This document shows, piece by piece, positions 28,669 to 51,914 of a stretch of 64,000 nt of DNA. The translations under genes and the position numbers were made by a program. The stretch is from the NCBI GenBank assembly GCA_003157015.1, contig PMIJ01000114.1, positions 15,240 through 79,239 of the forward strand, read 5' to 3'. The DNA comes from Bacteroidales bacterium. Its GTDB lineage: Bacteria > Bacteroidota > Bacteroidia > Bacteroidales > VadinHA17. Under the pieces are notes generated by a model. The model was not told the DNA's origin. It made no database searches and worked only from the letters and a program-made list of their open reading frames with translations. Each line of letters starts with the position of its first letter. Position 1 is the stretch's first letter.

Positions 28669-28782
28669 ACCTGCTTTTTCGATAAATTAATTATTCTGTC
28701 TTCCCTTTGTGCTACTTTGTACTTTACTTTGTGATTAAATTAATTAGTTTTACCACAAAGGAACACTAAGGCCTTTTTAGCG

Positions 28783-31700: not shown

Positions 31701-32340
31701 AATAATCAATGGCTTCCTTAGGGAACTCAGGAAATTGTTTATGAATAGTTTCCAGCTGTTCAGTTGCTTTGTCATAATCCCCGTTGCGGATGTAAATATC
31801 AGTCAGACTTAGTTTAGGGACAAGATTATCAGGAGCTTTCGCAACCAGCTGTAGCAATAAATTCTTCCTTTCCTGTATTGATGCGGTATCTGTTGCCGAC
31901 GAAAATAATTCAGTAAGATCATATAGAATTTTAACATGGTCGGGAGCAAATTTAAGAGCCTCTTTAAGTTCTGAGACAGCTTTTGCACGTTCATCATTCA
32001 TCTGGTACACCGTAGCCAGCAATAATCTTATATCCGCATCTTTAGGGTCAATTTTTATGGCTTCAAACAACTGCTTTTTTGCTTCAGGATATTTACCCAT
32101 TCTTAAATATGCCAGGCCCAGATTTGCATATCCGAGCTTCTCCTTAGGAGCCATTTTGATGAATTTTAAAAACTCCTTTTCTGCGTCATCAAGTTTGAAT
32201 TCCTCAAGATCTGCAAGACCAAGGGTCTGGGTCGTCATCAATTCGACCGATTTTTGTTTTGCGTCTTTTGCAGTATCCTTGCAGCTTAAAAGAAAAGAGA
32301 AGCAAAATGCAATTAGTAATAAAATGATATATTTATTCAT
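28783..32340 (-). CDS. Large lipoprotein: TPR repeats + FG-GAP propeller + ASPIC/UnbV + uncharacterised C-terminal domain
   Basis: Lipobox LLSC; TPR helices (YANLGLAYLRMG); many DxDxDGxxD loops; IHFGLG..ITWTNG; then about 430 aa starting GSCPFLYTWDG. Confidence 0.85.
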   Translation of the reverse strand: MNKYIILLLIAFCFSFLLSCKDTAKDAKQKSVELMTTQTLGLADLEEFKLDDAEKEFLKFIKMAPKEKLGYANLGLAYLRMGKYPEAKKQLFEAIKIDPKDADIRLLLATVYQMNDERAKAVSELKEALKFAPDHVKILYDLTELFSSATDTASIQERKNLLLQLVAKAPDNLVPKLSLTDIYIRNGDYDKATEQLETIHKQFPEFPKEAIDYYNKTLSLLKKADKENAIVQFTIFHNYLKVTSPYQAGIMDLKGPGGSLVGFPLISYDQQPVSESWENKSILSAIKFTDATAAAGLNIIPANIDDKNTEFRYSTHVEAADYDSDGDVDLYVGSYDQASSTYKHYLMNNDMGRFKDVSEEAGIKHSGKESSAAFADYDNDGFLDLFIAREGGDILYRNAGKGIFENVTEKAHIGSKTGGNRALFFDMDHDGDLDLYETGSNSNLMFRNNGDGTFQEQAEKMGMSCKNANSREAAFGDFDDDGDIDLFVVNENSSNTLFSNQRQGNFKDITEASGLKSKGGSGAVAVGDYNNDGFPDLFITSVNGGDHELMRNKGNGTFELAKNSNQMFAALKHVKVYDAKFFDFDNDGYQDLIVAGESDEKGGRGVFLYHNDGKGNFEDVSRLLPEEPRSGNQIALFDYNDDGDIDIVIAGLNGGVTLLRNDGGNLNHYVTMKLVGLRAGSAKNNHFGIGAKVEIRAGDLYQSMVVTDPNIHFGLGNRAKADNIRITWTNGVPQNILSTGTNQALIEAQTLKGSCPFLYTWDGNEFTFVKDVMWRSALGMPLGIMGGNTAYAFPDASDDYIKIPGELLKPRNGIYSIQLTSELWETMFFDQVQLVAVDHPDSVDIFVPEQFSPPPFPGNKLFEVKGKHIPLSATDSQGNDVLSFISAKDDKYLSDFGPDKYQGVVEMHDLILDPGDVGKNKNLFLFLNGWIFPTDASINVAISQSSALKVFRPFVQVINKKGEWETVTENLGFPMGKDKTVIADLSGKFLSADHRIRIRTNMEIYWDYIFFSDNVSNAPVVSTILNPVAADLHYRGFSHSYRKGGRYGPHWFDYSSVDKAVKWRDLSGNYTRYGDVLPLLKKSDNKYIISNAGDETSVEFDSRVLPELTKGWKRDFLIHTVGWVKDGDINTALGSTVLPLPFHGMKSYPPSASDIYPKDDEHQKYLKDYNTRVVTSDDFRNALKK

Positions 32341-32575
32341 ACTAATCAGGTTTTTTAAAGACAACAATGTTATTCTATGCTTCTGAAATGGCATTGTTAA
32401 TTCGCTTTTTAACTTTGTGTTCCTTGGTGACGTACTTAGTGCTCTTTGTGGTTCATTATTTACAATTTACCACAAAGGTACTCGAAGGTTTTCACTAAGG
32501 TACACGAAGGGCTAATTGGACATTCAGTTTGTTATTTTTATCAAAATTATGAAATTAAAGGAACATAACCCGTGT

Positions 32576-33700
32576 TTACTTTTCAACCGACACTGGAATT
32601 CCATTTTTTATTTGCATCAAACCGGGAGTGCCCATGCGTTTCCCTTTATTATCAAACTGAATTGGTCCGGTCACCCCGGTATAATGAATTTTTGACAAAT
32701 AATTTTGAATCTCTCTGCGCTCGGTACCGGCATTTTTAATAGCTTCAATAAGTAAATTTATGCCATCAAATGAATATGCAGCAACCGCACCCGGTACTTT
32801 GCCATAGTTTTTTTGAAACTCCTCCCGGAAGGATAAACCCTTTGACCCCGATAAGTTTACTGAAGAGACAAAAACAACATTCTCATACGATTTCATATCC
32901 AGTTCTGAAATATCATTTTCATCCAGAAGAGCTAAAGATCCAAATAAAGGCTGAATCATTTTCCTTTTTCTAAACTCATCAATTAATTTTATGGAAGCTG
33001 CAGGTTTGCCAAACATAACAATAGCTTTTATGTCAGCATTATTGATCCGGTCGATTAAGCTTTTAAAATCTTTATTATTATTATCATATAATAGTTGCAA
33101 CGGATCAGTTTTACCTTCAAGCTTTGTCTGTTTCACAAAATTTTCAAGTGCCAGTTTCGAGTCATAATCATTCCCTGAAACGGCTGCTATTTTAGTAAGT
33201 TTTCTTTTATCATAAATTTCTTCAATAAGAGCATCTGCCTGTTGAATATCAGTTGGTGCACAGCTGAAGTACCATGGTACAAACGCCTCGGCCAGAGTAG
33301 GGTCACTTGCCCATGAAGATAAATAGACTATCCTTGTTTTTGCAGCGACCTGTTCAATAAGATGCCCGTTTCTACCATCGCCTGAACTCATCAGAGCGCA
33401 TACGTTATCTTCAAAAATAAGGCTGACTGCCTGGTTGGAGCCGGTTCCCCACGGACCTTCCATTGAACGAACGACTAACTGGAAGGGCTTGTTCCTGTAG
33501 CCTCCCTGCTCATTGGCTTTGCGGATTGCCATTTCTGCACCATTTACTGCAGACAGGGAGTTATTATCAGAAATTAACAGTCCGATTTTCACAGTCTTAT
33601 CAGACTCTTCATGCTTTTTGCCGGACTGTAAGTCAGATGCAATGAATCCGGAGAGTACTGAAATGAGACAGACAGGCAATAGTAGTTTCTGTAATTTCAT
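32576..33700 (-). CDS. Leu/Ile/Val-type periplasmic solute-binding protein (orphan)
   Basis: VKIGLL..GAEMAI..AN..GG, AAYSFDG and GVTGPIQFD..G.R motifs. Confidence 0.85.
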   Translation of the reverse strand: MKLQKLLLPVCLISVLSGFIASDLQSGKKHEESDKTVKIGLLISDNNSLSAVNGAEMAIRKANEQGGYRNKPFQLVVRSMEGPWGTGSNQAVSLIFEDNVCALMSSGDGRNGHLIEQVAAKTRIVYLSSWASDPTLAEAFVPWYFSCAPTDIQQADALIEEIYDKRKLTKIAAVSGNDYDSKLALENFVKQTKLEGKTDPLQLLYDNNNKDFKSLIDRINNADIKAIVMFGKPAASIKLIDEFRKRKMIQPLFGSLALLDENDISELDMKSYENVVFVSSVNLSGSKGLSFREEFQKNYGKVPGAVAAYSFDGINLLIEAIKNAGTERREIQNYLSKIHYTGVTGPIQFDNKGKRMGTPGLMQIKNGIPVSVEK

Positions 33701-33720
33701 CAAAAGACCTCACTATTTTT

Positions 33721-34602
33721 TCATATATGGGCAGCTTTGAGTGTTGAAATTCCTCTCCCTACAGCCTTGGCAATTTTATTCAGACCGGCCATAAGGAGTC
33801 TGAATTCATCAAGGTTAAGCGACTGATAGCCGTCACAAATTGCTTCTTCAGGTTTATAATGCACTTCCATGATTAACCCATCCGCGCCAACCGCTATAGC
33901 AGCCTTTGACATAGAAGGCACCATCCATCTCAGGCCTGTTCCGTGACTTGGGTCAACGATTACCGGAAGATGGCTGAGCCGTTTCAGCATGGGAACAGCG
34001 CTCAGATCGAGTGTATTCCTTGTGGAGGTTTCGAATGTCCTTATTCCACGCTCACATAAAATAACCTGGTCGTTACCCTGATTAAGAATATACTCAGCGG
34101 CAAGCAGGAACTCGTCAATTGTTGCCATCATACCACGCTTCAGTAAAACAGGTTTTTTGCACATACCAGCCTCCTTTAGGAGAGGATAGTTCTGCATATT
34201 ACGCGATCCGATCTGAATCATGTCGGCATATGAAGCGACCATCTCAACCTGTCTTGTATCCATTACTTCTGTTACAACGGGCAAACCTATCTCTTTACTT
34301 ATAATACTGAGCAACTTCAATCCTTCTTCTCCAAGTCCCTGAAAATTATATGGTGAAGAGCGTGGTTTGAATGCTCCGCCTCTCAGAATGCCTGCACCAT
34401 GGGCTTTTACAGACCTGGCAGTTTCGAAAAGCTGTTCGCGGCTCTCGACGGCACATGGTCCGGCAATAACTACTATTTCAGCTCCTCCAACCAGCACGCC
34501 GTTAATATTCACTATAGTGTCTTTCTGTGATGGCTTCCGGCTCACTTTAGAAGGAATAGCAGACTTTCCGTTTACATTATTATTGCATGGATTTGTTTCC
34601 AT
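33721..34602 (-). CDS. aroF: DAHP synthase (type I-beta) without a regulatory domain
   Basis: [40 protein letters not shown] and VDPSHGTG motifs. Probable start METNPC. Confidence 0.92.
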
Positions 34603-34621
34603 TATTGCTTCGTTTATTTTA

Positions 34622-35935
34622 TTAATAGCCTCCTGTCGAACTTCCGCGTTTGTATTTCTGATCAAGCGGGGGAGCAGGAGAAAATACAAATTTTCCGTTA
34701 TGAACTTCGGCAATGAAAATATCTCTGATGTTGTTCCAGCTTCCATCCAGTATTATCTTGCCGGTAACTCCGTCATAATTCTGAAAAGTCTTTCTGTCAG
34801 TTAGCAGATCACGGATAAGCACCCTGTTTAATCCGGCTTTCCTGATAGCCTCAATTATAATGTTCATTCCATCATAAGAATGTGCAGCGAATACATCAGG
34901 TTCCTGGCCGAATCTCTTTAAATAATTAGCCTGGAATGCTTTCAGCTTTGGATTATCTGATGTCGGATTATATTGACATGTGGTAATGATTCCTTCAGCC
35001 AATGGCCCGGCAATCGTAAGAAATTCGGGATTCACAACCCGGTCGGAAAAATATACCGGTTGTTTTAGTCCGATTGCACGCATCTGTTTCAGAATAAGTC
35101 CCGACTCTTTTGCATTTCCCCAAACGAGAATTGCATCGGGGTTTGTAACCATAATTCTTTCCAGCTGTGTTTTAAAATCAGTTTCTCCATCATTGAACCT
35201 CTCCTCAATGATCATTGGATGTCCGACACGTGTAGCATTCTCCGAAAAGATTTTTATTCCGACTCTGCCATACCTGTTGTTGGCCCTGATGACAGCGACA
35301 CGGGCATGGCCGTCTTTTTTGTATATTCTGGTAACCAATTGATATCCGCTCTGCCTGTCGTCGGGGATGACACGATTCAGCCATGGTATATTTGTCTCTG
35401 TAAAAGTCGGATCAGGATCACCGACACATAGCATGAAAATTTCCAGCTTTAATGCTGCTCGTAAGGCCACATGGGAAACTATATCATCAATTGACCCCAT
35501 GAATATCCATACTTTTTCATCATCCATTTTAACCACTTCATTTGCAGCGGCTCCCCACAATCCGGCATCATTGTGTGGCATTAAAACGAAAGGAATTCCC
35601 TTGTAGCCGCCATTTTTGTTAGCCTCCTCCATTGCAAGTTTTGCACCCTGTAACATTTGTATTCCCTGAGGCACCATTACTGAACCACTAAGAGGCCCAA
35701 GAAATCCTATTCTTACTTCTTTAAGATCAGCAGGTGCTTTTAATTCACGTCCGGCACCATAGAACTGAATAGGGTTGAGGAAATGGTACATATACGCTTT
35801 CGTATATTTCTGATACGGGAAAAGTTCATCGGGAGCTTTGCCATAATTTTGTTTCTGTTCCTGTCCGTTTAAAATTGAAGCTGGCACAAAAAGTGTGATC
35901 AGAAAAGCTGCTGCTAAAAAATGTCTAGTTTTCAT
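34622..35935 (-). CDS. Leu/Ile/Val-type periplasmic solute-binding protein (orphan)
   Basis: Signal peptide; [36 protein letters not shown] and GVTGKI motifs. Confidence 0.88.
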
Positions 35936-35944
35936 GATTGTGAA

Positions 35945-36532
35945 TTAATTTGATTTACAGATTGCATAGACTTCAATTTCGACAAGAAGGGTTTCCCAGC
36001 ACAATCTTGCCTGAATACCTGTACTGGCCGGCAGTGGATCGAGCTTCATCCATGTATAGAAGGATGTACGGATCTTATTGAATTCTGCATAATCCCTTTC
36101 AATATCCCTGAGATAGTTTGTTGTTCTTACAACATCATGCCAGCTCATTCCTTCTGCAGACAACAGATTGGTAATATTTACATAAGTTCTCCATAACTGG
36201 GCTTTAAAATCGCCGATATGCTCTGCCTTGCCTTCTTCGTTTACGCTGGCAGTGCCTGAAATGAGCAATACCTTATGACCTCCGAAATCCAGACGTAATG
36301 CACGGGAAAAGGAAGATGGTTTTTGATAGTTATATGCTTCATTTATAACATGTGGAGCATGAACAACAAGTTTTTCAATAGGAGGACGATCTTCATGTAC
36401 CTCAGGATATTTATAGGTGTTAATTTCATTATAATCAGATAATATACCAAGCTTTTTCATCTCGAGTTTTTCTCCATCAGTAAGCTTTGACAGATCAATG
36501 AGTAATTGTTTTTTCTCTATTATCTCAATCAT
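35945..36532 (-). CDS. Rid (YjgF/YER057c/UK114) fold protein, chorismatase-like
   Basis: FSRA, ISGTAS, H.GD..AQ and LC...LLVEIE. Has PAST where RidA has PAR(S/T). Confidence 0.75.
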   Translation of the reverse strand: MIEIIEKKQLLIDLSKLTDGEKLEMKKLGILSDYNEINTYKYPEVHEDRPPIEKLVVHAPHVINEAYNYQKPSSFSRALRLDFGGHKVLLISGTASVNEEGKAEHIGDFKAQLWRTYVNITNLLSAEGMSWHDVVRTTNYLRDIERDYAEFNKIRTSFYTWMKLDPLPASTGIQARLCWETLLVEIEVYAICKSN

Positions 36533-36572
36533 ATCACAAGTATTAACTCATTCGACTTTTTCAATTTTTCAA

Positions 36573-37709
36573 CTATTTAAGTAATTCTCCACGACTAACA
36601 CCTTTTTCAGTAGCTACCCAAAGCACCTCTTTATCAGCATCGACACCAATAATGAAATTATGAGCTATTGAGGGACTCATTGGAATTTCCCTGGTAGTTT
36701 TATTCGCTGTACTGTCGTCGTCGCGGCTGAAATTGGATATGATAGCTTTCCCGTTACTGTCATTATCATTTTTCTTATAAGTAACCCAGCCTTTCCCGTT
36801 GGTACTGCTTAGCCCGTTGTCGCTGCAAATGAATACCACAGGGCCCTCAGCTCTGACAAAATTGATGAAGTTGCTTGCCAGACCGCAATGTTCTTTAAAG
36901 TAGCCTTTCCAGTGCGTGCCGTCATAGCTGCTTAAACCAAAATAGGTCGATACCCACAGATATCCGGCTCCCCAGGTAGTTGCTGTTGTTATATCATGAA
37001 CTATTCCATCATCGGGGAGTAAGTCAATTTCCATTTCACCGTCAGGATCGGTATAATCCTTGAATTGTTTCGTCTTCTTAGTATATTCGATAACACCGCC
37101 TCCCCAGGCAGCAATAAAAATCTTGCCATCGCCTTCGGAGACACCATAAGTCCAAGGCTCATGCATGGGGGCATTTTGTTCGGTGAATATCTCCCATTGC
37201 CTGGTTGCCGTATCATAATGACCTGCGCCGCCACCAGTGGCTACCCAAACGTCTTTTCCGTCGCATATGACGCAGTAAACCAGATCATTTGGCATGCCGC
37301 TGTTTAACTGAGTGAAATTTTCAAACTTGCCTCCCGACCACCTGCTTAGTCCTCCCAGTGTTCCGATCCAGACATCTCCGGTTACCTGGCTTACATCAAT
37401 GGATAATATTCCATTGTGTGGAAGACCATCAGTTGTGGTATACGTTTTCCACTTCCCATTCTCATAAACAGCCAGTCCATCATGGGTTCCTGCCAATACC
37501 CTGTCACCATCAACACGGACACAATAAACATGATCGGAAGGAAGCCCGTCCTTTGTGGTAAAATTGCGCCAATGACCGTATACTGGCATCTTATTCGCGT
37601 CATCCCTTACATTGGTCTTAACTGAAGGTTGTCCGTTCATGGTGCAGACGCCTGAAAGTATCAATGCAACAATGCCCATAAGAACCTTTTTAACTAATAA
37701 TTTTCCCAT
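36573..37709 (-). CDS. Stand-alone two-component-regulator-type beta-propeller, secreted
   Basis: Repeats of T.DGLP....V..I..D....WxGT.GG; no kinase or transmembrane output domain. Confidence 0.8.
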   Translation of the reverse strand: MGKLLVKKVLMGIVALILSGVCTMNGQPSVKTNVRDDANKMPVYGHWRNFTTKDGLPSDHVYCVRVDGDRVLAGTHDGLAVYENGKWKTYTTTDGLPHNGILSIDVSQVTGDVWIGTLGGLSRWSGGKFENFTQLNSGMPNDLVYCVICDGKDVWVATGGGAGHYDTATRQWEIFTEQNAPMHEPWTYGVSEGDGKIFIAAWGGGVIEYTKKTKQFKDYTDPDGEMEIDLLPDDGIVHDITTATTWGAGYLWVSTYFGLSSYDGTHWKGYFKEHCGLASNFINFVRAEGPVVFICSDNGLSSTNGKGWVTYKKNDNDSNGKAIISNFSRDDDSTANKTTREIPMSPSIAHNFIIGVDADKEVLWVATEKGVSRGELLK

Positions 37710-37728
37710 GATTTTCACTGTTAATAGA

Positions 37729-39756
37729 TTAGTTTTTAGCATGATTTTTCTTTAAATCCACATATTCGTATTGGGGAGATCTTAGTGATTTCAGATAATC
37801 AATAAGTTCATTAAGCTGAATTTTTGTCATATCATTTACCACTCCGTGTTTATCACCTTTCCCGTATTTGGTCCAGATTTCCTCCAGAGTTGCAGCACGA
37901 CCGTCATGTAAATAGGGTGCAGAAGCATAAATATCATTAAGGTGAGGAGTATCAAACAGTATTGAATCATCTGTTGAGGACAGAGTCTGAACATATGCCA
38001 GCTTACGATTGGTATAATAAGGAGGTGTATGACAGGTAATGCAACGATTGGCTTCAGGTATTTCTTTTCCGTAGTTATCCTTTGTTCGTTCAAATATTTC
38101 CTTTCCGTGTAATTGCGCTTCTGTAAGTTTCCCTTCAGGATTATACTGAAGATTAGGAGGATTCTTTATTCCTGTAAGGATGTAAGCAGTGAGGGCATCA
38201 AGATCCTTATAACTGAACGATTCTGTACGTGTTAGGAAAGTGGAAAAACGCATTCCGTCCTGCTTATATACAGTAGGGTTAGTTCCCGACCATTTAAATG
38301 GCGCAGTTTCACTTATATCCCTCAGTGTCATTGTATTAGTTACATTCCGGCCCATGTCCTTACCTGACATATTATAAACAAGGCCGTCTTCATGCATATC
38401 CGGATGGCAGGTATAACAACAATACTGATTCTGAAAGGTATGCGAAGAATTGTTAAAGAGCCTGCGTCCACGACGGGCAACAGTTATTCTGTGAGGACCT
38501 CCAAGGTCGATGGTTGAGACTTTCTGCAGGCTCTCTGTATTAATAACGCCAATATTGTCATCAAGCATCTCTGCCACATAGAGCAGCTTACCGTCGGGTG
38601 AAAGTGCAATCCCTTTCGGGTTCGCACCTGTGTGAATGCGCTTCAGAATATATCGGCTGCTGATACCAAGATTATTTGAGAATTGTTTCCGTGCTTCAGG
38701 AGATGCACCTGCTAACAGTGTTCTTACTGAGTCAACATCTACAATGGAAATATAATCTGCACCGGCACTGGAGATAAAAGCTTTTTTACCATCGGGAGTG
38801 ATTGCGATGCCAAATGGATCGGAATAGAAGGAATCAGGTTCATCTATCAGCAACTCGCTGATTTTTCCGTCTTTCCCTGGTTCGATTACACCGAATCCAT
38901 GGGTCATCATCCAACCCTGTTCAACCTGTATGGCGGGCACATAATTCTTGGGTCTTATCAATGTCACAAATCCGAGGTCACCGCGAGGAGTGAATGCGAT
39001 ATTTTCCATCATATAAGCAGATTCAATTTTCTTGTACTCAGAAATCCTCCTGGAACTGTCATTTATAACTGTGAGCTCGCTAACAAGCGGTTCGCCATAA
39101 GGAGCAATTTTGGCACGTCTGCTTGTTACAAAGAGGAACTTGCCGTCAGGAGACAGTTTAGCACCGGTAGGGTTATTACCGGCAGTGATGCGGTTTATTT
39201 CTTCTTTTGAATTAAGATTAATAACTGAAACATCCGACGAAAATGAGTTAACCACATAAAGTGCCTTGCCGTCACTGCTCAATGCAAGGCCGGCAGGACC
39301 GTTGCCTGTTTTAAGCGTATCTGTGACTTTTCCTGCTGAAAGGTCAATTACGGAAACATTATCCGACCACTGATTGCTGACATAAGCTTTCAGACCGTCT
39401 TTACTTAGTATGACTGAATGAGGCTGGTTACCAACATCGATTTTATTTATAACTTTATTCTTCTCTGCATCAACAATAAGCAATGCATTGCTTTCCTGAG
39501 CAACAACATATAATCTTTTGCCGTCGCCCGAAACAGTAAGGTTAATCGGTGACAGGTACCTGGCATTTACAAGTTTAGCAGAGAGACCTGTTTTCTGAAT
39601 ATAAAGATGGCATGAAGTACATAAAAGCGGATGATCAGTGGTCGCTGTTTTTTCGTTAACATGCGCCCTGGCCCATTTTCGTCCCGGAAAATAGATTAGC
39701 AGAGCCAGAACAAGAATGATTCCCGATAAGCGGATAAATAGAGTTGATCTCTTCAT
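37729..39756 (-). CDS. YVTN beta-propeller fused to a di-heme cytochrome c peroxidase/MauG-like domain (hydrazine synthase beta+gamma-like), 3 CxxCH motifs
   Basis: CTSCH near the N-terminus; YVTN repeats (YVSNQWSDNVSVID, YVVNSFSSDVSVIN); CYTCH, CITCH and FDTPHL...APYLHDG.A.TLEE. Confidence 0.85.
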   Translation of the reverse strand: MKRSTLFIRLSGIILVLALLIYFPGRKWARAHVNEKTATTDHPLLCTSCHLYIQKTGLSAKLVNARYLSPINLTVSGDGKRLYVVAQESNALLIVDAEKNKVINKIDVGNQPHSVILSKDGLKAYVSNQWSDNVSVIDLSAGKVTDTLKTGNGPAGLALSSDGKALYVVNSFSSDVSVINLNSKEEINRITAGNNPTGAKLSPDGKFLFVTSRRAKIAPYGEPLVSELTVINDSSRRISEYKKIESAYMMENIAFTPRGDLGFVTLIRPKNYVPAIQVEQGWMMTHGFGVIEPGKDGKISELLIDEPDSFYSDPFGIAITPDGKKAFISSAGADYISIVDVDSVRTLLAGASPEARKQFSNNLGISSRYILKRIHTGANPKGIALSPDGKLLYVAEMLDDNIGVINTESLQKVSTIDLGGPHRITVARRGRRLFNNSSHTFQNQYCCYTCHPDMHEDGLVYNMSGKDMGRNVTNTMTLRDISETAPFKWSGTNPTVYKQDGMRFSTFLTRTESFSYKDLDALTAYILTGIKNPPNLQYNPEGKLTEAQLHGKEIFERTKDNYGKEIPEANRCITCHTPPYYTNRKLAYVQTLSSTDDSILFDTPHLNDIYASAPYLHDGRAATLEEIWTKYGKGDKHGVVNDMTKIQLNELIDYLKSLRSPQYEYVDLKKNHAKN

Positions 39757-39758
39757 AA

Positions 39759-41192
39759 CTATTCGGTGTCGATCATTTTATCTTTAATCTTATTTATGTG
39801 GACAGGGATGCCAACAGGTGCTTTTCTTACTGCAAGAGGAATCCGGTTATCAGGGACGATATCCTGATCTTCATGACATCCTACGCATCCCCTTCGTTCA
39901 TTGGGACGTAGCCATATCCAGTCACATTTCCGGATTACGTTTCCCATTTCATCAAGTGTACGGATCTGGAAAGGCTTGTCTGCTATCACCTTAAGGTAGA
40001 ATGACCCATCCCCCGAAGGTTTAAATACTCCCAGTGACGAATCAATTCCCATTATCTCTACTTTTGAAATCTTTTTAAGCATGACACCGGATATCTTTGC
40101 AGGGTTATCCTCTACATTCACATCCTGACACATAATGAGGCCGGTTTTTATAACGGCATTCACCTCGCTTGGCAGCTTTCTGGATCTGATATGTTTCACT
40201 GCATCAACAACTTCAAGTACATCGAATTCATTATTGCTGTAAATGGGTTTGCCCAGAGATTTATTCTCAGGATCGAATTCATAAAGCGCATATCTGTCAT
40301 TGGTGGTTTTGCGGAATGAGACCAACAGCTTCCCTGAGGGTTGAGGACAAACAGCCCTGAAATCACCTTCAATTTCAGAGGACAGGTTGAGCCTGGAGTG
40401 CATCGGACGATTATAACTGACTGAAATAAGATTTCCTTTATCCGGGTTACTCTTTACCGATTCGATGAAAACTATTCTTCCATTGTCTGTTTCCAATCCG
40501 CGACCTGATAATTCACTGCCTTCGCTGCCCTTGTAAAACAGTTCTGACTTGGTACCGTCGGGTCGCATAACCATAAACTTCTGATCCCCTGTTTCAGGGA
40601 ATTCCTGCACTCCGATCGTCAAAATGCGACCGTCACGGAGTACGTTGGAAGCTACATACATGCCCGGATTGTAAGTTATACGCTTCTGGTCAGAGCCATC
40701 AATATTACTTGTAAAAATGGATTCATTTGCCTTCAATGAATCGGTAGCTGAATGACTGGTAAAAAGGAAACGTCCGAGCGGTAAATAAGCCGGATCGGTG
40801 CAATCCGTTTTCAGTTTTGTTAACTGCCTTGTCTTAAGGTTTCCAAGATCAGTTTCCCAAATCTGCCATGTATCACCTTCATTTTTCTGACCGGCAAAAA
40901 TCATGAAATGTCCGTCACTTGATATTTCAGGAGACCTGGCTGAATAAAAAGAGGATGTGAGTAGCTTTGGTGATGGGTCAGGCTTGCCCGGCTCAATTGC
41001 AACAATCTCTGACCGGAGAATATATTTCCGTGAACTTGCTGCAGAGAAATTTGAATTTTCAATCTTTCCTGCAGTTCTTGTTATAACTATACTAGCTTCT
41101 TTTAATTTTTCCCTGCATGAGGTCAGAAAAAGGCTGCTAATGCCTGTGGCCATTATAAATAAGAAGACTATGGTCGATCGATGGTTATTCAT
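39759..41192 (-). CDS. Hydrazine synthase alpha-like lipoprotein (TolB-like propeller + HZS-alpha middle domain, 1 CxxCH)
   Basis: Lipobox LTSC; PD40-like repeats; C-terminal DGSFYLKV.ADKPFQIRTLD...WLRPNERRGCVGCHE. Confidence 0.75.
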   Translation of the reverse strand: MNNHRSTIVFLFIMATGISSLFLTSCREKLKEASIVITRTAGKIENSNFSAASSRKYILRSEIVAIEPGKPDPSPKLLTSSFYSARSPEISSDGHFMIFAGQKNEGDTWQIWETDLGNLKTRQLTKLKTDCTDPAYLPLGRFLFTSHSATDSLKANESIFTSNIDGSDQKRITYNPGMYVASNVLRDGRILTIGVQEFPETGDQKFMVMRPDGTKSELFYKGSEGSELSGRGLETDNGRIVFIESVKSNPDKGNLISVSYNRPMHSRLNLSSEIEGDFRAVCPQPSGKLLVSFRKTTNDRYALYEFDPENKSLGKPIYSNNEFDVLEVVDAVKHIRSRKLPSEVNAVIKTGLIMCQDVNVEDNPAKISGVMLKKISKVEIMGIDSSLGVFKPSGDGSFYLKVIADKPFQIRTLDEMGNVIRKCDWIWLRPNERRGCVGCHEDQDIVPDNRIPLAVRKAPVGIPVHINKIKDKMIDTE

Positions 41193-41199
41193 CCGGAGG

Positions 41200-42897
41200 C
41201 TATTTTTGCAGTTCTTTAATAGTAAGAATCTGATTGACTTTGATATTCTCAAGCACCTGTAATTTCCCTGAGGGCCACTTTATCTCGATTCTGTCAACCA
41301 TCTCATTCTTAGCCAGACCAAAATGCATCCGAGGATCATTCTGAGAAAGATATCCTGAAGTGCTTTTCTTCTGATTCGTTTGCACTTTGCCTCCTGATGT
41401 CACCTTTATCCTGGCACCTATTCCGTCTCTGTTGCTTACCGTTCCGATGAGATTGAGAGTTATCCAGTTGTTCTGATTTCCTTTGTTATTTCTCAGGAAT
41501 GCCCCGCGGTCATTCAGATTCACAATATATGCATCAATGTCTCCATCATTGTCGTAGTCGCCAAAACAGGCCCCTCGTCCAACCAGCTTTTCCTTAAAGT
41601 AACTGCCCAAATCCCATGAAACGTCCTTGAATTTTCCGTTTCCAAGGTTTTCAAAAACCTGGTCCTCCTGCCCGTAGAGATGTTTCAGCGCTCCGTTTGT
41701 TTTATAAATATCAACCAGACCATCATTGTTATAATCAAAGAAGGAAGAGGACCATCCGACAAATTGTCCTGCAGGCATTGCTATTCCCGACGGGTATGAT
41801 TGTTCGCTGAAGATGCCGTTTCCCATGTTTTCATAAAGCCTGCAGTACTTGTCATCAGAAATGAACATGCCCATTCTTCCAGAACCTGTATAATCAGCAA
41901 AATCTACAGACATACTGACTGCCGATTCTCCTGATTGGCCAAACGCAGTTCCTGAAGGAGTGCCCACGTCAGTGAAGCTCTTTCCTCCGTTATTGTGCCA
42001 GAGGTAATTCATTGAATGGTCATTGGCAACATAAATATCAACGAATCCATCGTCGTCATAGTCTATTGCGCCAACACCCATAGCTCTTCCGTCCAGGTCG
42101 ACTATTCCCATTTTTTTCGTAACATCCTCAAATGTGCCATCTCCATTGTTGTGATATAAAACATCAGGCTGGGCATCATAGGCCAGTGGACCGGGAAAGC
42201 CGTCAGGAGCGTAATAATATTTATAGTTTGGATCAAAATTGATGTACTTACCAACATAGAGGTCGAGGAAACCGTCGTTGTCATAATCGAGCCAGACAGC
42301 TCCTGTATTGAAATCAGTTTCTTTTCCTCCGACACCGGCGCGTTTGGTCACATCTGTGAACGTTCCGTCACCGTTATTTTTATAAAGAACATTAGTTCCG
42401 TAATTGCTGACATATAAATCGGGATATCCATCATTATTGAAATCGCCGACTGTTACTCCCATGCTGTACCATGGGCCACCAACTCCTGCTTTTTTTGTAA
42501 CGTCCTCAAAGGTTCCGTCACCGAGGTTATGATAGAGATGATTCTCAGGCATTATGGCAGGTTTCTCCCCGCTGCTCACACCTTTAAGCCAGGTCCCGCT
42601 GCAGACATATAAATCTATAAATCCATCCTGATCATAGTCGAGAAAGGCAGCTCCGGCACCGCTTGATTCAACTATATTAGTCAGCTCTTTGTCACCGATA
42701 GAGTGAACAAAATCAATACCGATCTCTTTGCCGATCTCCTGAAAATAATCACCATTCGGAGCAGGAACAAAGTGTTTCTTTACACCTGATGATTTATTAT
42801 TTGACTGGCAGGCTGAAACACACAGCAGGAGAATAAAAAGGAAAACTAAGTAAAAGGATTCATCTGAATTACTGAAAAACTTCTTTATTGCACGCAT
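41200..42897 (-). CDS. CRTAC1-family FG-GAP/ASPIC-UnbV lipoprotein
   Basis: Lipobox VSAC; DxDxDGxxD repeats; SGYLSQNDPRMHFGL..IEIKWPSG. Confidence 0.9.
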   Translation of the reverse strand: MRAIKKFFSNSDESFYLVFLFILLLCVSACQSNNKSSGVKKHFVPAPNGDYFQEIGKEIGIDFVHSIGDKELTNIVESSGAGAAFLDYDQDGFIDLYVCSGTWLKGVSSGEKPAIMPENHLYHNLGDGTFEDVTKKAGVGGPWYSMGVTVGDFNNDGYPDLYVSNYGTNVLYKNNGDGTFTDVTKRAGVGGKETDFNTGAVWLDYDNDGFLDLYVGKYINFDPNYKYYYAPDGFPGPLAYDAQPDVLYHNNGDGTFEDVTKKMGIVDLDGRAMGVGAIDYDDDGFVDIYVANDHSMNYLWHNNGGKSFTDVGTPSGTAFGQSGESAVSMSVDFADYTGSGRMGMFISDDKYCRLYENMGNGIFSEQSYPSGIAMPAGQFVGWSSSFFDYNNDGLVDIYKTNGALKHLYGQEDQVFENLGNGKFKDVSWDLGSYFKEKLVGRGACFGDYDNDGDIDAYIVNLNDRGAFLRNNKGNQNNWITLNLIGTVSNRDGIGARIKVTSGGKVQTNQKKSTSGYLSQNDPRMHFGLAKNEMVDRIEIKWPSGKLQVLENIKVNQILTIKELQK

Positions 42898-43161
42898 TTT
42901 TAGGGTTATATTTTATGAATATAATATTGCCGTCCTAATCAGTTTCTATTAAAAAAAATACCGGCTGAACAAACTAAAAGGCCGTAAATATAATAATTTT
43001 CATATACCTCTTAACCTTACGACCTCATTTGTAAAACCTGTTACCCTGTTTACCTTCTAAAACTAACCTAAACAATATTAACCTATAACCTTGAAACGAT
43101 TCCTGACTATGCAAATTATTCAGGAGATTTAATTTTTGACTAAGGCAATGTTACGCATGCC

Positions 43162-43205
43162 CTATTAAACGTGGATTAAAATAAAATTAAAAAAGGATTA
43201 AAGTT
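43162..43205. promoter_or_regulatory. Four ATTAAA boxes at exact 11-bp spacing, candidate OmpR/PhoB-family binding site
   Basis: ATTAAA at 43164, 43175, 43186 and 43197, about 270-300 bp upstream of the 12-gene operon. Confidence 0.45.
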
Positions 43206-43363
43206 TTGATCGATTCTCATCGCGCCCTTCTATTGGTTTATCTCTCCCCAACCCTCCCTCAGGAGGGAGAGGCTATTGCAATATATGCCATTTAGGACCC
43301 CTTTCTCTCCTGGGCTACCCTTTATACACATCTTTTTTCCCAAAGTCGACTTATATTTTTAAA

Positions 43364-43453
43364 TAGCTCTGAAAGAGCTAAATACGAATAACCCCTGGCG
43401 CCAGCCGGGGGTCTATGCAACAAACAATCTACAGATCTGAAGGAGCTGAATAT
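43364..43453. repeat. REP-like hairpin cluster
   Basis: tagctctgaaagagcta, acccctggcgccagccgggggt and a degenerate third hairpin; similar layout to 60731-60820. Confidence 0.6.
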
Positions 43454-43522
43454 AAAATATCAGAGGAAATACTTCTCATAAAGAGAGCAACCCGACCACC
43501 TATTTACCTGATTATTTATATT

Positions 43523-44809
43523 TTAATCCCTCAAACAACGAACAGGTAAGCCATATGACTCACTGAAGATGCCCCTGTAGACTTGGGCGGGAATGTAACC
43601 AATGCACCGAAAGTAGGCAAAAGTTGGAGATCCTTCCGTAGAACTCCACCAGATACCGTGCAAGTTAACAAAGTTTACTACACCAGAGCTGAAACGGCCG
43701 CCACTTGGAAGACCCGTAAAACCACTACTATTATTGCTTGCCTGATCGTTGCCAACGTTCCCTGCTGTTGTATCTGCAATAAATCCAGAAGTCGCTGCCA
43801 AAGATTTGGCAATATCGTTTCCGCTACCTTCAAAACCATAACCATTATTTGTGAGAAAATAGGTCAAAGTTGTCCAATCATTATCAGTAGGAACATGCCA
43901 TCCTGCGGGGCAAACATTACGGCTATCCGTTATTGCATAATAAGTATAAAATCTACCATAAGTAACATTTGTACACTCCCATTGGTACTCAGGTATTATT
44001 AAATTTGTGATATCCAATGTTGCAGGAGATGTCGTTCCTATTAAATCACCATTACGGTACCTGGTGGTTCTGAGGTTTTCTTGCATCCATACCTGAGTTC
44101 CGATATTTATAGTATTATAAGTATTGCCTTCAACATCTGCCAAAAGAGTGGTAAATGTCAAATCACTTCCATATGTTGTCCCAAGAGAATTAACTGCTTT
44201 TACCCTGAAATGATAGATAGTCGCTTCGGTTAGTCCAGCAATATCTGCATTTACAGAAGAAGTTGTTACACCTGTTAAAGGACTTTGAGCAGCTGTTACA
44301 GTAGTGCCATAACTTGTAGTTGTCCCATATTCCAGGGTTACTACTGTGGATAGATTGTTGGCAACTACATTACCAATCAATGTTGCAGTGGTTGCTTCAA
44401 TATTTGTTACTGATGAAGTTGTTGCAGTTGGTGATTGTCCATAAGAAATGAAAGAAACAACCCTACCATATCCTGTTCCAACAGAATTTGCGGCATAAGC
44501 ACGGATATAATAAACTACATCTACATTCAAACCTGTTATGTTGCTGGAAAAACTTCCTTTACCCCTACCATCTATCGTTTTGTTATCGGCTATAGTAGGG
44601 TTAACATCTGTGCTCCAACATACTCCACGAATTATGATTGATGAACTACCTTCATCGGTTATAGTTCCGCCACTTGTTGCATTAACTCCAGTAATATCCG
44701 AAACTGGTGTTGTTCTAACAGTAGGTACATTTTCTTTTTTACATCCAGATAAAATAGTTCCTGCAATAAGATAAATGATTACCAGATAACACTCAGTTAT
44801 TTTTTTCAT
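43523..44809 (-). CDS. FISUMP-domain lipoprotein with Fn3-like repeats
   Basis: Lipobox LSGC; YYIRAYAANSVGT.YG repeats; IGTQVWMQENL, CPAGWHVPT, WWSST and VRCLRD motifs. Confidence 0.88.
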   Translation of the reverse strand: MKKITECYLVIIYLIAGTILSGCKKENVPTVRTTPVSDITGVNATSGGTITDEGSSSIIIRGVCWSTDVNPTIADNKTIDGRGKGSFSSNITGLNVDVVYYIRAYAANSVGTGYGRVVSFISYGQSPTATTSSVTNIEATTATLIGNVVANNLSTVVTLEYGTTTSYGTTVTAAQSPLTGVTTSSVNADIAGLTEATIYHFRVKAVNSLGTTYGSDLTFTTLLADVEGNTYNTINIGTQVWMQENLRTTRYRNGDLIGTTSPATLDITNLIIPEYQWECTNVTYGRFYTYYAITDSRNVCPAGWHVPTDNDWTTLTYFLTNNGYGFEGSGNDIAKSLAATSGFIADTTAGNVGNDQASNNSSGFTGLPSGGRFSSGVVNFVNLHGIWWSSTEGSPTFAYFRCIGYIPAQVYRGIFSESYGLPVRCLRD

Positions 44810-45417
44810 AATTATATATTTAACAGATTATATCAAAATAACGTTTCCACCGCATGAAGTTCAAGGGCCAGAAATGCCATCCTAGATCCTGGCAGTGATT
44901 TCTTATGTAAAGTTATTAAAAAAACCGATCATGTTAAAATTGACATTTTAAGTATGAAATTTCTTCCATGATTTTCGGGGTTATTTCCTTTTTTAAACTT
45001 TTTTAACATTCCACCCAAGAGTTAACCCAGATGGATGGAATTAGCACTATTATTTCTCAGTGGTTCATGAGATTTTAAGAGTTGTAAGGAACCATCTCAG
45101 AATAACAGGGAAAAAATACAGCATGCTTACCAGCTTATGAGGGTTGAATAAAATTATTGATATGATGTGAAGTAGAAAGTTGTTAACAGCCATCAACCAT
45201 CGCATATTTCTGAACTGAAAGTCATAAAATCTATACAAACTGGCAAACCTGGCAATAAACAGAGCCGAGGTAAAAAAATTGCGCGGTGGGCAATTTTAGA
45301 TAGTCCTATTCGCAAACTATGATTTAAAAGATATGTACAAAGGTTAGTTGTTGTTTAATTGAAGGGGGGAAAGGGTTAAGAAAACAATGAAATTTTATAG
45401 GATATTTTAAAGTTTTA

Positions 45418-46785
45418 CTAAACCGTCGGAAGCAAAACCGTTACAGTAGTGCCTTTTCCTAACTTTGAGGATAGATTAACCGTCCCGTTATGGATTTTAA
45501 TTATCTGGCTGACAAGTGGAAGACCGATTCCGGTACCTGAAATGGAGATAGTATTACCACCACGATAAAAAGGTTCAAAAATTTTCCCGACATCCGTCTC
45601 CGGAATACCAATACCTCTGTCTTCAAAAACTATTTCTATGGACTTTTCTATTGGCATAAGCTTAATCTCCACAGTGTGGTCCGGGGAATACTTGCAACCA
45701 TTATCTATAATATTTGAAACAGCCACTTTAAGCAGATTCTCATCACCCACGACGATCATCTGTTCCGAATCGGTAATTGAATTGTCTATTGAAATATTTA
45801 TGCGATAATTGCTGTTGAATCTCTGTATTTCTTCCTGTACCTGCCATAAGATTTCATCAATCCTGATTTTTTTATTAAAATTCACAGGACCTTCTGCGCT
45901 TGTGCGTGCTATGAGTAATAATCTGTTTGACAATACTATGAGAGATTTAATGTCATCGAGCACCGACGTAAGTGCGGACTTATATTCCTCTGAGGAGCGT
46001 TCTTTCATCATTAGTACCTCAAGCTGACCATTTATTGATGTAAGCGGAGTCCTGAGTTCGTGAGAGGCATTTGCAATGAAATTTTTCTGCATCGAAAATG
46101 AGGTCTCAAGCCGCTCAAGCATTTTATTGAATGTTCTGGCAAGTTTGCCGATCTCATCATTCCCTTTTCCTTCGAAAACTCTTAAGTTCAGACTTGTAAT
46201 AGTGATATCTTCCACTTTTTTTACTACATCTGAAATAGGTTTAAGGGCTCTTCCCGAATAGAACCATCCTGCCACAAAAAATAACAGCAGGCTGACTACA
46301 CAAACAATTATCAGTAAGATCTTTAATTTTTTTAGACGCGATGATCCCTCGTTATCGATGGCGGCTGCAACAACAACAAACCGGTCATATTTTGTATAGT
46401 ATAACGTAGCCAGAATATCATATGGATCCTGATTATAAGTTATATCAAAACCCTGTTTCACATGTTCAATGATATTGTTTCTTATTTTGATATCGGAGTT
46501 CTCGTCTGAATTGTAAACAGTGTCATTTTTGTAATTCAGGATTATTATCTTTTCGTTTTGAAGGAAAACGGGTTTTTTGCTTTCAATGCTCAGGATCCGG
46601 TTAGCATCCGCCTTGTCGGTATTAAACAGCAAATTCGCGGTGCTCATTGCCTTTTGGCTCAGTTGGCTGAAAAAATCCTGCCTTCTGAATTTTGAGGAGG
46701 AAATATAAATTGCAACTGATGCAATTATCATAATTATTCCTCCAATCAGTAGGAATTGTAATGTCAATCGGGTCCTTATCTGCAT
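45418..46785 (-). CDS. Sensor histidine kinase with HAMP domain
   Basis: Two transmembrane segments, HAMP, H-box ASHELRTPL, N-box NIIDNGCKY, DRGIGI and GTGIGL. Confidence 0.95.
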   Translation of the reverse strand: MQIRTRLTLQFLLIGGIIMIIASVAIYISSSKFRRQDFFSQLSQKAMSTANLLFNTDKADANRILSIESKKPVFLQNEKIIILNYKNDTVYNSDENSDIKIRNNIIEHVKQGFDITYNQDPYDILATLYYTKYDRFVVVAAAIDNEGSSRLKKLKILLIIVCVVSLLLFFVAGWFYSGRALKPISDVVKKVEDITITSLNLRVFEGKGNDEIGKLARTFNKMLERLETSFSMQKNFIANASHELRTPLTSINGQLEVLMMKERSSEEYKSALTSVLDDIKSLIVLSNRLLLIARTSAEGPVNFNKKIRIDEILWQVQEEIQRFNSNYRINISIDNSITDSEQMIVVGDENLLKVAVSNIIDNGCKYSPDHTVEIKLMPIEKSIEIVFEDRGIGIPETDVGKIFEPFYRGGNTISISGTGIGLPLVSQIIKIHNGTVNLSSKLGKGTTVTVLLPTV

Positions 46786-46786
46786 T

Positions 46787-47464
46787 CTAAAAATCTCCAA
46801 ATACGTAGCCAAAACCGACCCTGGTATGGATCATCTTTTTATTATGTCCCTTATCAATTTTTTTGCGTAAGAAGTTTACATAAACATCTACCACGTTGGT
46901 ACCGAAATCAAAATTTATATCCCATACTTTTTCAGCAATATCGATCCTTGATAATACTCTTCCACTATTCCTCATGAAGTATTCAAGCAATGAGAACTCC
47001 TTGGCAGTAAGATCAATATATGAACTGCCCCTTCTTACAACTTTCTTTTCCAGGTCGAGTTCCACATCGCCTACGACAATACTGTTCGATCTGCCATCAG
47101 ACTGACCTGGTTTCTTTAGCAACACCTTTACTCTAGCCAGAAGTTCCCTGAATTCAAATGGTTTTACCAGGTAATCATTTGCACCTGCCTCAAAGCCTTC
47201 AATTTTATCATCAGTTGTACCGAGGGCTGTAAGCATGAGGACAGGCAGATTTGAATTTATTCTCTTAAGTTTTTTACAAAGATCCAGACCGTTAATTCCC
47301 GGAATTATGATATCAAGTATGAAAAGATCGAATTTTTCTGAACGTGCAAGTTTTTCCGCAGTCTCACCGTCATAGGCAATTTGAGCATCATAGTTGTTCT
47401 CTTCAAGTCCCTTTTTTATAAATGATGCTACCTTCTTTTCATCTTCAACAATCAGAATCTTCAT
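46787..47464 (-). CDS. OmpR/PhoB-family response regulator (CusR/ArlR-like)
   Basis: ILIVEDE, LDIIIP, DYLVKPF, LTAKEF and NVVDVYVNFLRKKID motifs. Confidence 0.95.
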   Translation of the reverse strand: MKILIVEDEKKVASFIKKGLEENNYDAQIAYDGETAEKLARSEKFDLFILDIIIPGINGLDLCKKLKRINSNLPVLMLTALGTTDDKIEGFEAGANDYLVKPFEFRELLARVKVLLKKPGQSDGRSNSIVVGDVELDLEKKVVRRGSSYIDLTAKEFSLLEYFMRNSGRVLSRIDIAEKVWDINFDFGTNVVDVYVNFLRKKIDKGHNKKMIHTRVGFGYVFGDF

Positions 47465-51895: not shown

Positions 51896-51914
51896 TTTTA
51901 AATAATATTAAAAT

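Follow-up and report, generated by a model that had tools for sequence, protein, structure and literature searches.

We analysed a 64,000-nucleotide stretch of the peat-derived Bacteroidales bacterium assembly GCA_003157015.1 (contig PMIJ01000114.1, positions 15,240–79,239; hereafter the window), which carries a gene pair related to all three subunit families of hydrazine synthase (HZS), the enzyme of anaerobic ammonium oxidation (anammox). To our knowledge, HZS was long thought to be without relatives. An initial annotation made from the sequence alone had reported two genes 2 bp apart, and both are indeed present on the minus strand: an HzsA-like (alpha-like) gene at 39759–41192, followed after a gap of 2 nt (39757–39758) by a fused HzsBC-like (beta-gamma-like) gene at 37729–39756. 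The 477-aa HzsA-like subunit comprises a lipoprotein signal, a TolB/HZS-alpha-type propeller, an HZS_alpha middle domain and one c-type heme motif, and the 675-aa HzsB/HzsC-like subunit combines an anchor helix, an extra mono-heme segment, a seven-bladed propeller and a CCP/MauG-type di-heme domain with three such motifs in all, giving the pair four.

The HzsA-like frame starts with ATG in our reading; an alternative upstream TTG at 41252 would extend it to 497 aa, and we took the ATG because 477-aa homologues align over residues 1–477. The assignment to Bacteroidota in the initial annotation finds support in a SusC/SusD pair within the window and in proteins of 92% identity from Bacteroidales metagenome-assembled genome (MAG) records. 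Cytochrome c maturation, which the initial annotation had named as a point to confirm, is represented by a CcsA-type match in a 1029-aa frame of the genome, and attachment of heme c is plausible for that reason.

The two subunits and their relation to hydrazine synthase

The HzsA-like protein begins with a lipoprotein-like signal (LFLTSC), and its C-terminal region contains WLRPNERRGCVGCHE followed by 36 further residues. Its sole CXXCH is CVGCH (residues 436–440; 39873–39887, minus strand, as for all features of the pair given below), which aligns to CSGCH of the alpha chain in the HZS crystal structure (5c2v_A) and corresponds to the heme alphaI motif of HZS. The protein ends 37 aa after the histidine of this motif, in line with the earlier description of a shorter alpha with a single heme motif. 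The Pfam model HZS_alpha, one of the checks proposed with the initial annotation, scores 53.7 bits against a cut-off of 26.6 (E 3.2e-14), and the NCBIfam model hydrazine_alpha matches at E 2.4e-25. Searched against the PDB, the protein finds 5c2v_A with phmmer (E 1.3e-15), and a profile of 65 HzsA-like relatives matches the same chain at 8.1e-51. Its AlphaFold2 (AF2) model (predicted local distance difference test score, pLDDT, 89.4) has 5c2v_A as the top Foldseek match (E 1.2e-24, query-normalised TM-score (TMq) 0.76), followed by TolB (3.9e-10, TMq 0.47); the propeller had been called TolB-like, and with a TIGR02800 match of 2.3e-07 and TolB as the next-best fold behind HZS alpha, that label was apt.

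The two cysteines and the histidine of the HzsA-like CXXCH are kept in 60/65 family members, within the consensus GCxGCHEDxExxPxNRxPxA. The family alignment contains no second conserved His or Met that might serve as a sixth ligand. Cys131, which is nearly invariant and conserved in HZS alpha, was considered as a heme ligand and rejected, being kept in five heme-less members and lost in six heme-bearing ones.

The HzsBC-like protein has a hydrophobic N-terminal (anchor) helix, followed by the extra heme motif CTSCH (residues 46–50; 39607–39621), whose C46, C49 and H50 are invariant in 35/35 Bacteroidota-type sequences. In the propeller, the blade-6 loop RPKNYVPAIQVEQGW (residues 268–282; 38911–38955) is the counterpart of the HzsB loop that approaches the HZS tunnel, with TPKNWLPVCEAENGQ as the aligned segment of 5c2v_B; in a set of 56 sequences from several phyla, G281 never varies and W282 hardly does. 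Two further heme motifs, both invariant in these 56 sequences, follow in the di-heme domain: CYTCH (residues 447–451; 38404–38418), the heme gammaI motif, which aligns to CASCH of 5c2v_C, and CITCH (residues 572–576; 38029–38043), the heme gammaII motif. Between them, in a PFKW segment that pairs with PFRH of 5c2v_C, Trp489 (38290–38292) takes the place occupied by gammaHis144 in HZS and by the inter-heme Trp in CCP/MauG (PMC12758564). C447, C450, H451, W489, Q499, R503 and R510 are all invariant across the same 56 sequences, and APYLHDG stands at residues 613–619. The initial annotation had singled out CTSCH, CYTCH, CITCH and APYLHDG and described a YVTN propeller joined to a di-heme domain; the four motifs lie where it had placed them.

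The NCBIfam models hydrazine_beta, hydrazine_gamma and hydrazine_BC match the fusion at 2.1e-64, 7e-23 and 5.6e-71, respectively. With phmmer it finds 5c2v_B at 1.8e-50 (residues 68–407 against chain positions 13–349) and 5c2v_C at 2.4e-17, and family profiles find the same chains at 4.1e-64 and 3.5e-27; the beta-type alignment to 5c2v_B runs end to end, blade-6 loop included. In the AF2 model the propeller is predicted with pLDDT ∼90 and 28 strands, and residues 437–514 and 572–622 fall below 50. Foldseek with this model, confident in the propeller only, returns 5c2v_B on top (E 1.7e-32, target-normalised TM-score (TMt) 0.88), followed by 1l0q (8.2e-23). Comparison with the HZS structure, also suggested at the outset, therefore places 5c2v_A and 5c2v_B first for the alpha-like and beta-like models.

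For the gamma-like part, Pfam CCP_MauG (PF03150), likewise among the suggested checks, reaches 27.3 bits over the whole protein, just above its cut-off of 25.6, and no single stretch passes. The MbnH and MauG models match weakly (2.2e-06 and 7.8e-06), as does PDB entry 6e1c. Because the PF03150 match is marginal, we treat the gamma-like part as a related domain rather than as a CCP/MauG orthologue. It shares with CCP, MauG and MbnH two CXXCH motifs ∼125 residues apart, the inter-heme Trp and a PYxHDG-type motif, whereas here the di-heme domain follows a propeller and an extra heme in one polypeptide and has an alpha-like subunit as its partner.

Homology to HZS alpha, beta and gamma is thus real by sequence, and for alpha and beta also by fold; the alpha/beta/gamma-like set recognised in the initial annotation is supported by Pfam, NCBIfam, phmmer, profile and, for alpha and beta, Foldseek matches. 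The pair shares with HZS of Kuenenia stuttgartiensis (5C2V/5C2W) an alpha-type propeller and middle domain with a heme motif at the same place, a beta-type seven-bladed propeller with the blade-6 loop insertion, a gamma-type di-heme domain and, as predicted here, an interface uniting the loop and both heme segments; with HZS of Scalindua it shares the beta-gamma fusion (PMC10732223, PMC12758564). It differs in its extra N-terminal heme and anchor helix, in an identity of only ∼20–30%, and in gene order, the alpha gene lying upstream of beta-gamma here and downstream of it in HZS. Scores against the NCBIfam equivalog models stay far below the cut-offs: 88.6 of 800 bits for NF052339 (alpha), 217.9 of 560 for NF052340 (beta), 81.1 of 625 for NF052341 (gamma) and 239.6 of 1250 for NF052342 (beta-gamma).

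The residues that are special to HZS are another matter. In HZS, the iron of heme alphaI is bound by Tyr591, and His587 and Cys303 form a Zn site next to it (PMC12607021, PMC12758564). In the HzsA-like protein the heme CXXCH is kept, alphaCys303 (chain position 276) aligns to Ser, and no equivalent of alphaTyr591 was found, the alignment to 5c2v_A stopping two residues past the CXXCH and the family having no conserved downstream Tyr. The C-terminal bis-His heme alphaII domain is absent from the HzsA-like protein, whose single CXXCH lies within 37 residues of the C-terminus. On the gamma side, gammaHis144 is replaced by Trp489 in 56/56 relatives, and gammaCys165, which makes a third covalent heme bond in HZS, has no equivalent: HzsBC-like residues 451–571 contain no Cys, and of two alignments one places a gap opposite this position and the other Asp500. 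GammaAsp168, on the distal side, corresponds to Phe504. The absence of these residues indicates a different reaction, as the initial annotation had supposed, with heme alphaII, Tyr591, Cys303, gammaHis144 and gammaCys165 all lacking an equivalent; judged from its sequence, the pair is not a hydrazine synthase. In the genome, which is 95.65% complete, no match to the HAO/hydrazine oxidoreductase-type family was found among nine multi-heme frames scanned, and NrfA (PF02335) was not found. A genome search with PF13447 (HAO-type) also gave no match, but its control likewise matched in no genome.

To model the complex, HzsBC-like residues 66–660 and HzsA-like residues 58–462 were combined, each with its own alignment; the model therefore starts past the anchor helix and the extra heme segment in one subunit and past the opening propeller strands in the other. 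All three runs gave an interface score (ipSAE) of 0.84, while none of three controls exceeded 0.00; the runs shared at least 94% of their contacts, with a partner pLDDT of at least 86. The ipSAE mark applied is reached by 58/80 solved complexes and 2/110 mismatched pairs, counts that are only rough for models with own alignments. In the modelled interface, the loop (268–282) and gamma-like residues 441–442, 465–469 and 502–513 face alpha-like residues 433–437, 443–452, 259–265 and 338–343, so that the alpha-like CVGCH motif lies within it; loop residues 268–274, 276–277 and 279–282 contact alpha-like 443–452. This is the arrangement described for HZS (PMC12607021). A complex is plausible on the strength of the model, whose pass shows likeness and does not prove binding by this copy.

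Relatives across phyla and heme-less subunits in Balneolaceae

Co-located alpha and beta-gamma homologues of HZS, sorted into clades I–IV, have been described by Hagglund et al. (Genome Biol Evol, December 2025; PMC12758564). According to that description, clade III has an FG-GAP/CRTAC1-type gene upstream of alpha, which is short, lacks heme alphaII and itself precedes the fused beta-gamma; the fusion bears one additional heme motif, and two substrate-binding protein genes lie downstream; the homologues have Trp at gammaHis144 and a two-residue gap at Ser590/Tyr591, and were concluded to be unable to make hydrazine. The window shows the same series on its minus strand, with an FG-GAP gene at 41200–42897, alpha at 39759–41192 and beta-gamma at 37729–39756, one CXXCH on alpha, exactly one extra on beta-gamma (at 46, in addition to 447 and 572), two Peripla_BP_6 genes downstream (34622–35935 and 32576–33703) and the conserved Trp. 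It differs in carrying genes for a sensor-like propeller, a Rid-like protein and a DAHP synthase, none of which is named in the clade III account as far as we cite it. Earlier, Dalcin Martins et al. (2023; PMC10732223) had reported an hzsA-like gene directly upstream of a fused hzsBC-like gene in Phycisphaerae UBA1845 MAGs and proposed a broader enzyme family with other substrates. Those genes differ from the window's pair in having beta-gamma frames with six CXXCH (four extra), no FG-GAP match in their loci, identities of 26–30% (alpha) and 36–40% (beta-gamma), and a separate group in the tree. A literature search, with subscription journals outside its coverage, found no assigned function for the HZS-like family. 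The existence of HZS homologues and their not being hydrazine synthases are already in print, and the inference of the initial annotation is right but not new; new here are a ∼14-kb operon across 80 Bacteroidota loci, a related module in other phyla and heme-less alpha-like subunits in Balneolaceae.

We compared two sets of relatives. For Bacteroidota, 95 of 178 candidate stretches from a one-genome-per-species collection were close HzsBC-like relatives, 80 of which are listed and underlie the counts. For other phyla, a profile of seven distant alpha-like sequences retrieved at least 599 stretches, with at least 563 relatives among them, and counts refer to the best 80. Cross-matches between FG-GAP and between binding-protein paralogues make the counts approximate, and many misses are early contig ends. 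The Bacteroidota loci come mostly from MAGs of Bacteroidales and other Bacteroidota, with one record each from Balneolaceae and Chlorobiota and one named strain, Lutimonas halocynthiae CECT 8444 (L085). HzsA-like lies beside HzsBC-like in 77/80 of them, and this adjacency, together with the ipSAE contrast given above, speaks for the HZS-like complex put forward in the initial annotation. HzsA-like cluster representatives number 331 at E ≤ 1e-30 and 963 at E ≤ 1e-10.

The best 80 loci from other phyla come from records labelled Planctomycetota, Acidobacteriota, Verrucomicrobiota, Bdellovibrionota, Deltaproteobacteria, Omnitrophota and Anaerolineales, some being recorded only as ‘uncultured bacterium’; contigs of the OFTM MAGs of PMC10732223 are among those with alpha-like relatives. 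Their beta-gamma frames carry ten CXXCH in 40/61 cases, six in 16/61 and two to nine in the other five (two of them cut or over-long), and the ten- and six-heme frames fit clade I as described in PMC12758564. In a quick tree of 56 beta-gamma sequences, the 22 with one extra heme split off from the six- and ten-heme groups with a Shimodaira–Hasegawa-like approximate likelihood ratio test (SH-aLRT) support of 100. Two beta-gamma references with a stop (L141 and L169) were left out of alignment A5.

Among 301 sampled Bacteroidota genomes the HZS_alpha domain occurs in 20, and in 13/144 genera. Full-length HzsBC-like matches were limited there to the genome of the window, G200 (51% identity, beside an alpha-like frame of 489 aa) and, at a greater distance, G031; another two matches cover generic propeller repeats only. 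An HZS_alpha match alone does not indicate an HZS-like complex, because the Pfam model also matches the control, Bacteroides thetaiotaomicron. The G031 match (L023; C2:163365–164978) has 29% identity and one in-frame TAG, possibly a broken gene or a sequencing error, and sits 8 kb from a 1206-aa HZS_alpha + FGE-sulfatase frame. HZS_alpha with CXXCH also occurs in other architectures lacking a beta-gamma partner (L002, L003 and L008, in G031, G293 and G228): a 751-aa PD40 + HZS_alpha protein with two CXXCH, one with a type IX secretion C-terminal sorting domain, and one of >1079 aa with an FGE-sulfatase domain. The window's own genome encodes two fusions of a NapC/NrfH-type tetraheme domain with an FGE-sulfatase/PvdO/GldK-like domain (L191 and L192; C33:30356–31903 and C145:27845–29374), which recall the HZS_alpha + FGE-sulfatase fusion of G031.

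Five HzsA-like cluster representatives lack CXXCH, and a search with four of them led to eight Balneolaceae/Balneolales loci (L197–L204) with the same clade-III-type operon. RRGF(T/N/A)(G/S)W(D/N) replaces RRGCxGCH in 7/7 complete alpha-like frames (starting at L197:8019, L198:5775, L199:2095, L200:8019, L201:1949, L202:3049 and L204:8001), the eighth being cut by a contig end. The beta-gamma partners retain three CXXCH in 6/6 complete frames. The alpha-like heme, the counterpart of the proposed hydrazine-forming site of HZS, is accordingly dispensable in Balneolaceae, since 7/7 frames lack its CXXCH. All clade I–III homologues were said in PMC12758564 to keep the heme alphaI site, a claim that these subunits, as read from their predicted frames, contradict.

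Fourteen DNA runs from peat or permafrost contain the stretch, and each is a possible source of it. It is also represented in contigs of six RNA libraries from five studies, namely two peat libraries of one study (0.92 and 0.67 of its words) and four bioreactor libraries (∼0.3). Over positions 27000–46900, RNA contigs cover 30/30 bins in the two peat libraries and 22/30 in two bioreactor libraries, the uncovered bins in libraries X17 and X18 being uninformative. Transcription of the locus is suggested, but DNA carry-over may account for this cover.

The operon and its neighbours

The pair belongs to a conserved operon of ∼14 kb and about ten genes. Its order is fixed in Bacteroidota: (response regulator, kinase), FG-GAP, HzsA-like, HzsBC-like, sensor-like propeller, Rid-like, binding protein 1, DAHP synthase, binding protein 2, TPR/FG-GAP and FG-GAP. 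The order in other phyla is (Rid-like), HzsA-like, FG-GAP, HzsBC-like, propeller and binding proteins, with matches among the 80 loci to HzsBC-like in 61, the propeller in 58, FG-GAP in 58, binding protein 1 in 43, Rid-like in 23 and DAHP synthase in four; a Phycisphaerae group is without the FG-GAP gene.

In the window, the module opens with an FG-GAP/ASPIC-UnbV (CRTAC1-type) lipoprotein (41200–42897, minus strand, as are all operon genes; FG-GAP_3 1.4e-47, UnbV_ASPIC 2.5e-24), which has a lipobox-like LLLCVSAC, ends 7 nt before the HzsA-like ATG and has an upstream match in approximately 75/80 Bacteroidota loci. Downstream of the pair, a secreted stand-alone propeller (36573–37742) related to the sensor domain of Bacteroides hybrid two-component systems (Pfam Reg_prop; best PDB match 4a2l, 7.6e-22) overlaps the end of HzsBC-like by 14 nt and is directly downstream in 78/80 loci. 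Two secreted HAAT/LivJ-type solute-binding proteins are encoded further on: protein 1 at 34622–35935 (Peripla_BP_6 7.1e-47; best PDB match 3td9, 6.5e-29; 74/80 loci) and protein 2 at 32576–33703 (Peripla_BP_6 3.1e-35; 73/80 loci, some being low-identity cross-matches to protein 1). Domain scans of the operon genes revealed no ABC permease or ATPase gene. A 1203-aa lipoprotein with TPR, FG-GAP and ASPIC/UnbV domains (28783–32394; 78/80 loci) and a third FG-GAP/ASPIC-UnbV protein of 553 aa (27007–28668; 75/80 loci) complete the module, cross-matches being included in both counts.

Between the sensor-like propeller and binding protein 1 lies the gene of a 195-aa Rid/YjgF-family protein (35945–36532; Ribonuc_L-PSP 7.4e-16) with an 85-aa N-terminal extension and no signal peptide, matched in 58/80 Bacteroidota and 5/8 Balneolaceae loci. 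The substrate-binding Arg of the PAR motif is essential in RidA. The Rid-like protein does not group with archetypal RidA, scoring 42.8 bits on TIGR00004 (cut-off 106.25) and aligning a Ser to the Arg of the PH0854 ‘PAR’. It is nevertheless the best-conserved member of the module, with 67–73% identity in Balneolaceae and mostly 51–57% (range 31–65%) in other phyla, compared with 47–52% and 34–45% for HzsBC-like, and is cytoplasmic by sequence despite the periplasmic heme system. A role as chorismatase partner of the DAHP synthase was considered and dropped, the matches to TIGR04444 (25.7 vs 325 bits) and PF21168 (16.4 vs 27 bits) being too weak, as was an Atlas match at rank 24 (0.81). The DAHP synthase itself (type I-beta; 33721–34746; NF006421 447 vs 335 bits; 65/80 Bacteroidota loci) may start at an internal Met, since its frame overlaps 34622–35935 by 125 nt. 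It is a second copy in the genome: contig C143 carries another DAHPS-like gene, and C232 a KDO8P synthase.

A histidine kinase and an OmpR-type response regulator (45418–47464, minus strand) lie upstream, as they do in many relatives (kinase 30/80 and regulator 27/80 loci), on the same strand and 4.7–9.4 kb (most 4.7–7.1 kb) upstream of HzsBC-like. The exceptions are the kinases of L074 and L093, which are weak matches (26–32% identity) on the opposite strand, that of L093 lying downstream. In the window, an unrelated Fib_succ_major gene separates kinase and regulator from the module. Just past the operon's last gene, 24592–26881 (minus strand) holds asparagine-synthase-like and radical SAM (RaSEA-like, 1.9e-33) genes, which occur beside the module in 7/80 and 6/80 loci at varying positions, one on the opposite strand. 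On the plus strand, 48740–57436 encodes a SusC/SusD pair and then a fourth FG-GAP/ASPIC-UnbV protein (1102 aa). In this genome CRTAC1-type genes therefore also accompany a locus of the polysaccharide-utilisation type, and three more copies lie on contig C156.

Proposed mechanism and competing readings

On balance, we think it probable that the two proteins assemble, on the HZS plan, into a c-type cytochrome complex that is tethered to the membrane in the periplasm and is not a hydrazine synthase. HzsA-like and HzsBC-like would bind 1:1, and a single interface would bring together the blade-6 loop and the stretches near the two heme motifs (alpha-like 433–452; gamma-like 441–442 and 502–513). 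The anchor-proximal extra heme would link the enzyme to membrane electron carriers, a role that four or eight c554-like hemes may take in other phyla, and electrons would move on to the gammaII-like heme and then, by way of the invariant Trp489 and as CCP and MauG do it, reach the gammaI-like heme. Catalysis would take place at the gammaI-like heme, which would face the loop and the alpha-like heme across the interface; this heme is pointed to because Balneolaceae have lost the alpha-like motif and kept the partner's three, and the invariance of C447, C450, H451, W489, Q499, R503 and R510 across phyla speaks for it as well. Candidate substrates are small oxidants or nitrogen compounds, such as H2O2, NO or a hydroxylamine-like species, and a small amine supplied by the two HAAT-type binding proteins. 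For the alpha-like heme, ordinary His ligation is probable and, because Balneolaceae lost it, so is the role of an accessory second site. A sustained redox role is suggested by the ten or six CXXCH that most beta-gamma frames of other phyla carry. The chemistry, which takes in the electron path, catalysis at the gammaI-like heme and the kind of substrate, is a tentative part of the proposal, and we would put it at somewhat below even chances.

Several points weigh against this cytochrome-complex reading. The substrate proposal is a guess for every member of the family, and the mechanism does not explain the operon's cytoplasmic Rid-like protein and DAHP synthase paralogue. The gamma-like domain is modelled at pLDDT below 50, so that its fold, its heme ligands and any tunnel are putative, and the complex model carries no hemes; its pass may reflect likeness to HZS, because 5C2V is a solved structure. 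The pair matches clade III of PMC12758564 in every feature described there, an assignment made by description rather than by tree placement. Finally, the alpha-like CXXCH persists in 60/65 members and so probably matters in most lineages, as a two-site reaction of the HZS kind would explain equally well.

In such a two-site enzyme, an intermediate formed at the gammaI-like heme would be channelled through a tunnel to the alpha-like heme and joined there to a second substrate, which could be an amine or amino acid from the HAAT-type binding proteins, yielding an N–N or N–O product other than hydrazine. Besides the retention of the CXXCH, the meeting of both heme-motif segments and the conserved beta-type loop in one predicted interface is in keeping with this, as are the two transporter-less solute-binding proteins conserved in the operon; the alpha-like heme could also be five-coordinate, because no second conserved His or Met accompanies it. 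We still hold channelling to be unlikely, since the Tyr ligand and the Zn site that define the HZS alphaI centre are absent and the Balneolaceae operon persists without the alpha-like heme motif. Rather less probable again is a MauG/MbnH-type protein modification, in which the di-heme domain would oxidise a residue of an FG-GAP/CRTAC1-type or of the alpha-like protein to give a cofactor or cross-link. It would account for the CCP/MauG Trp, for the weak MbnH, MauG and 6e1c matches and for the FG-GAP genes that accompany the pair in Bacteroidota and other phyla. However, the four or eight further hemes of relatives suit continuous electron flow better than one-off maturation, HZS as the nearest characterised relative acts on small molecules, and no candidate target residue was identified.

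That the two genes are merely neighbours, a generic YVTN-propeller/peroxidase fusion next to a TolB-like lipoprotein with no joint work, is very improbable, although YVTN and PD40/TolB-type propellers are common, 1l0q matches HzsBC-like as well as HzsB does by sequence, and 17 of the 20 Bacteroidota genomes with an HZS_alpha match have such proteins without a beta-gamma partner. The beta-type match is complete from one end to the other and takes in the loop, over which generic YVTN propellers did not align; HzsB is the top fold match by ten orders of magnitude, the pair is conserved across phyla, and the complex model passes against its controls. We give next to no credence to a cryptic true hydrazine synthase performing anammox-type chemistry in Bacteroidota. 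All three subunit families are matched by adjacent genes, but the scores fall far below the equivalog cut-offs, five HZS-specific features are absent, the nine multi-heme frames of the genome include no HAO/hydrazine oxidoreductase-type match, and PMC12758564, in its account of the homologues, reaches the same negative conclusion.

The main gain over published work is one of detail rather than of discovery, and lies in the breadth of the family, a fuller operon and the heme-less Balneolaceae variants. Those variants amount to a natural experiment on which heme performs the chemistry, and because one carrier is a named culture-collection strain, Lutimonas halocynthiae CECT 8444, the function is open to bench testing. 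The family is common in Bacteroidota of peat and sediment. A broader idea, which we regard as a long shot, is that the HZS-like module might be a widespread periplasmic system of anoxic soils, peat and sediments for the transformation of nitrogen (or peroxide), perhaps with NO, hydroxylamine or H2O2 chemistry at a CCP/MauG-like heme coupled to an amine or amino acid that the transporter-less HAAT-type binding proteins deliver, and with the alpha-like heme as an optional second site. If this were true, the anammox enzyme would be a late specialisation of an older enzyme, and a new nitrogen-cycle reaction would exist in cultivable Bacteroidota. HZS homologues such as this pair bear on how anammox arose and make up a large enzyme family.

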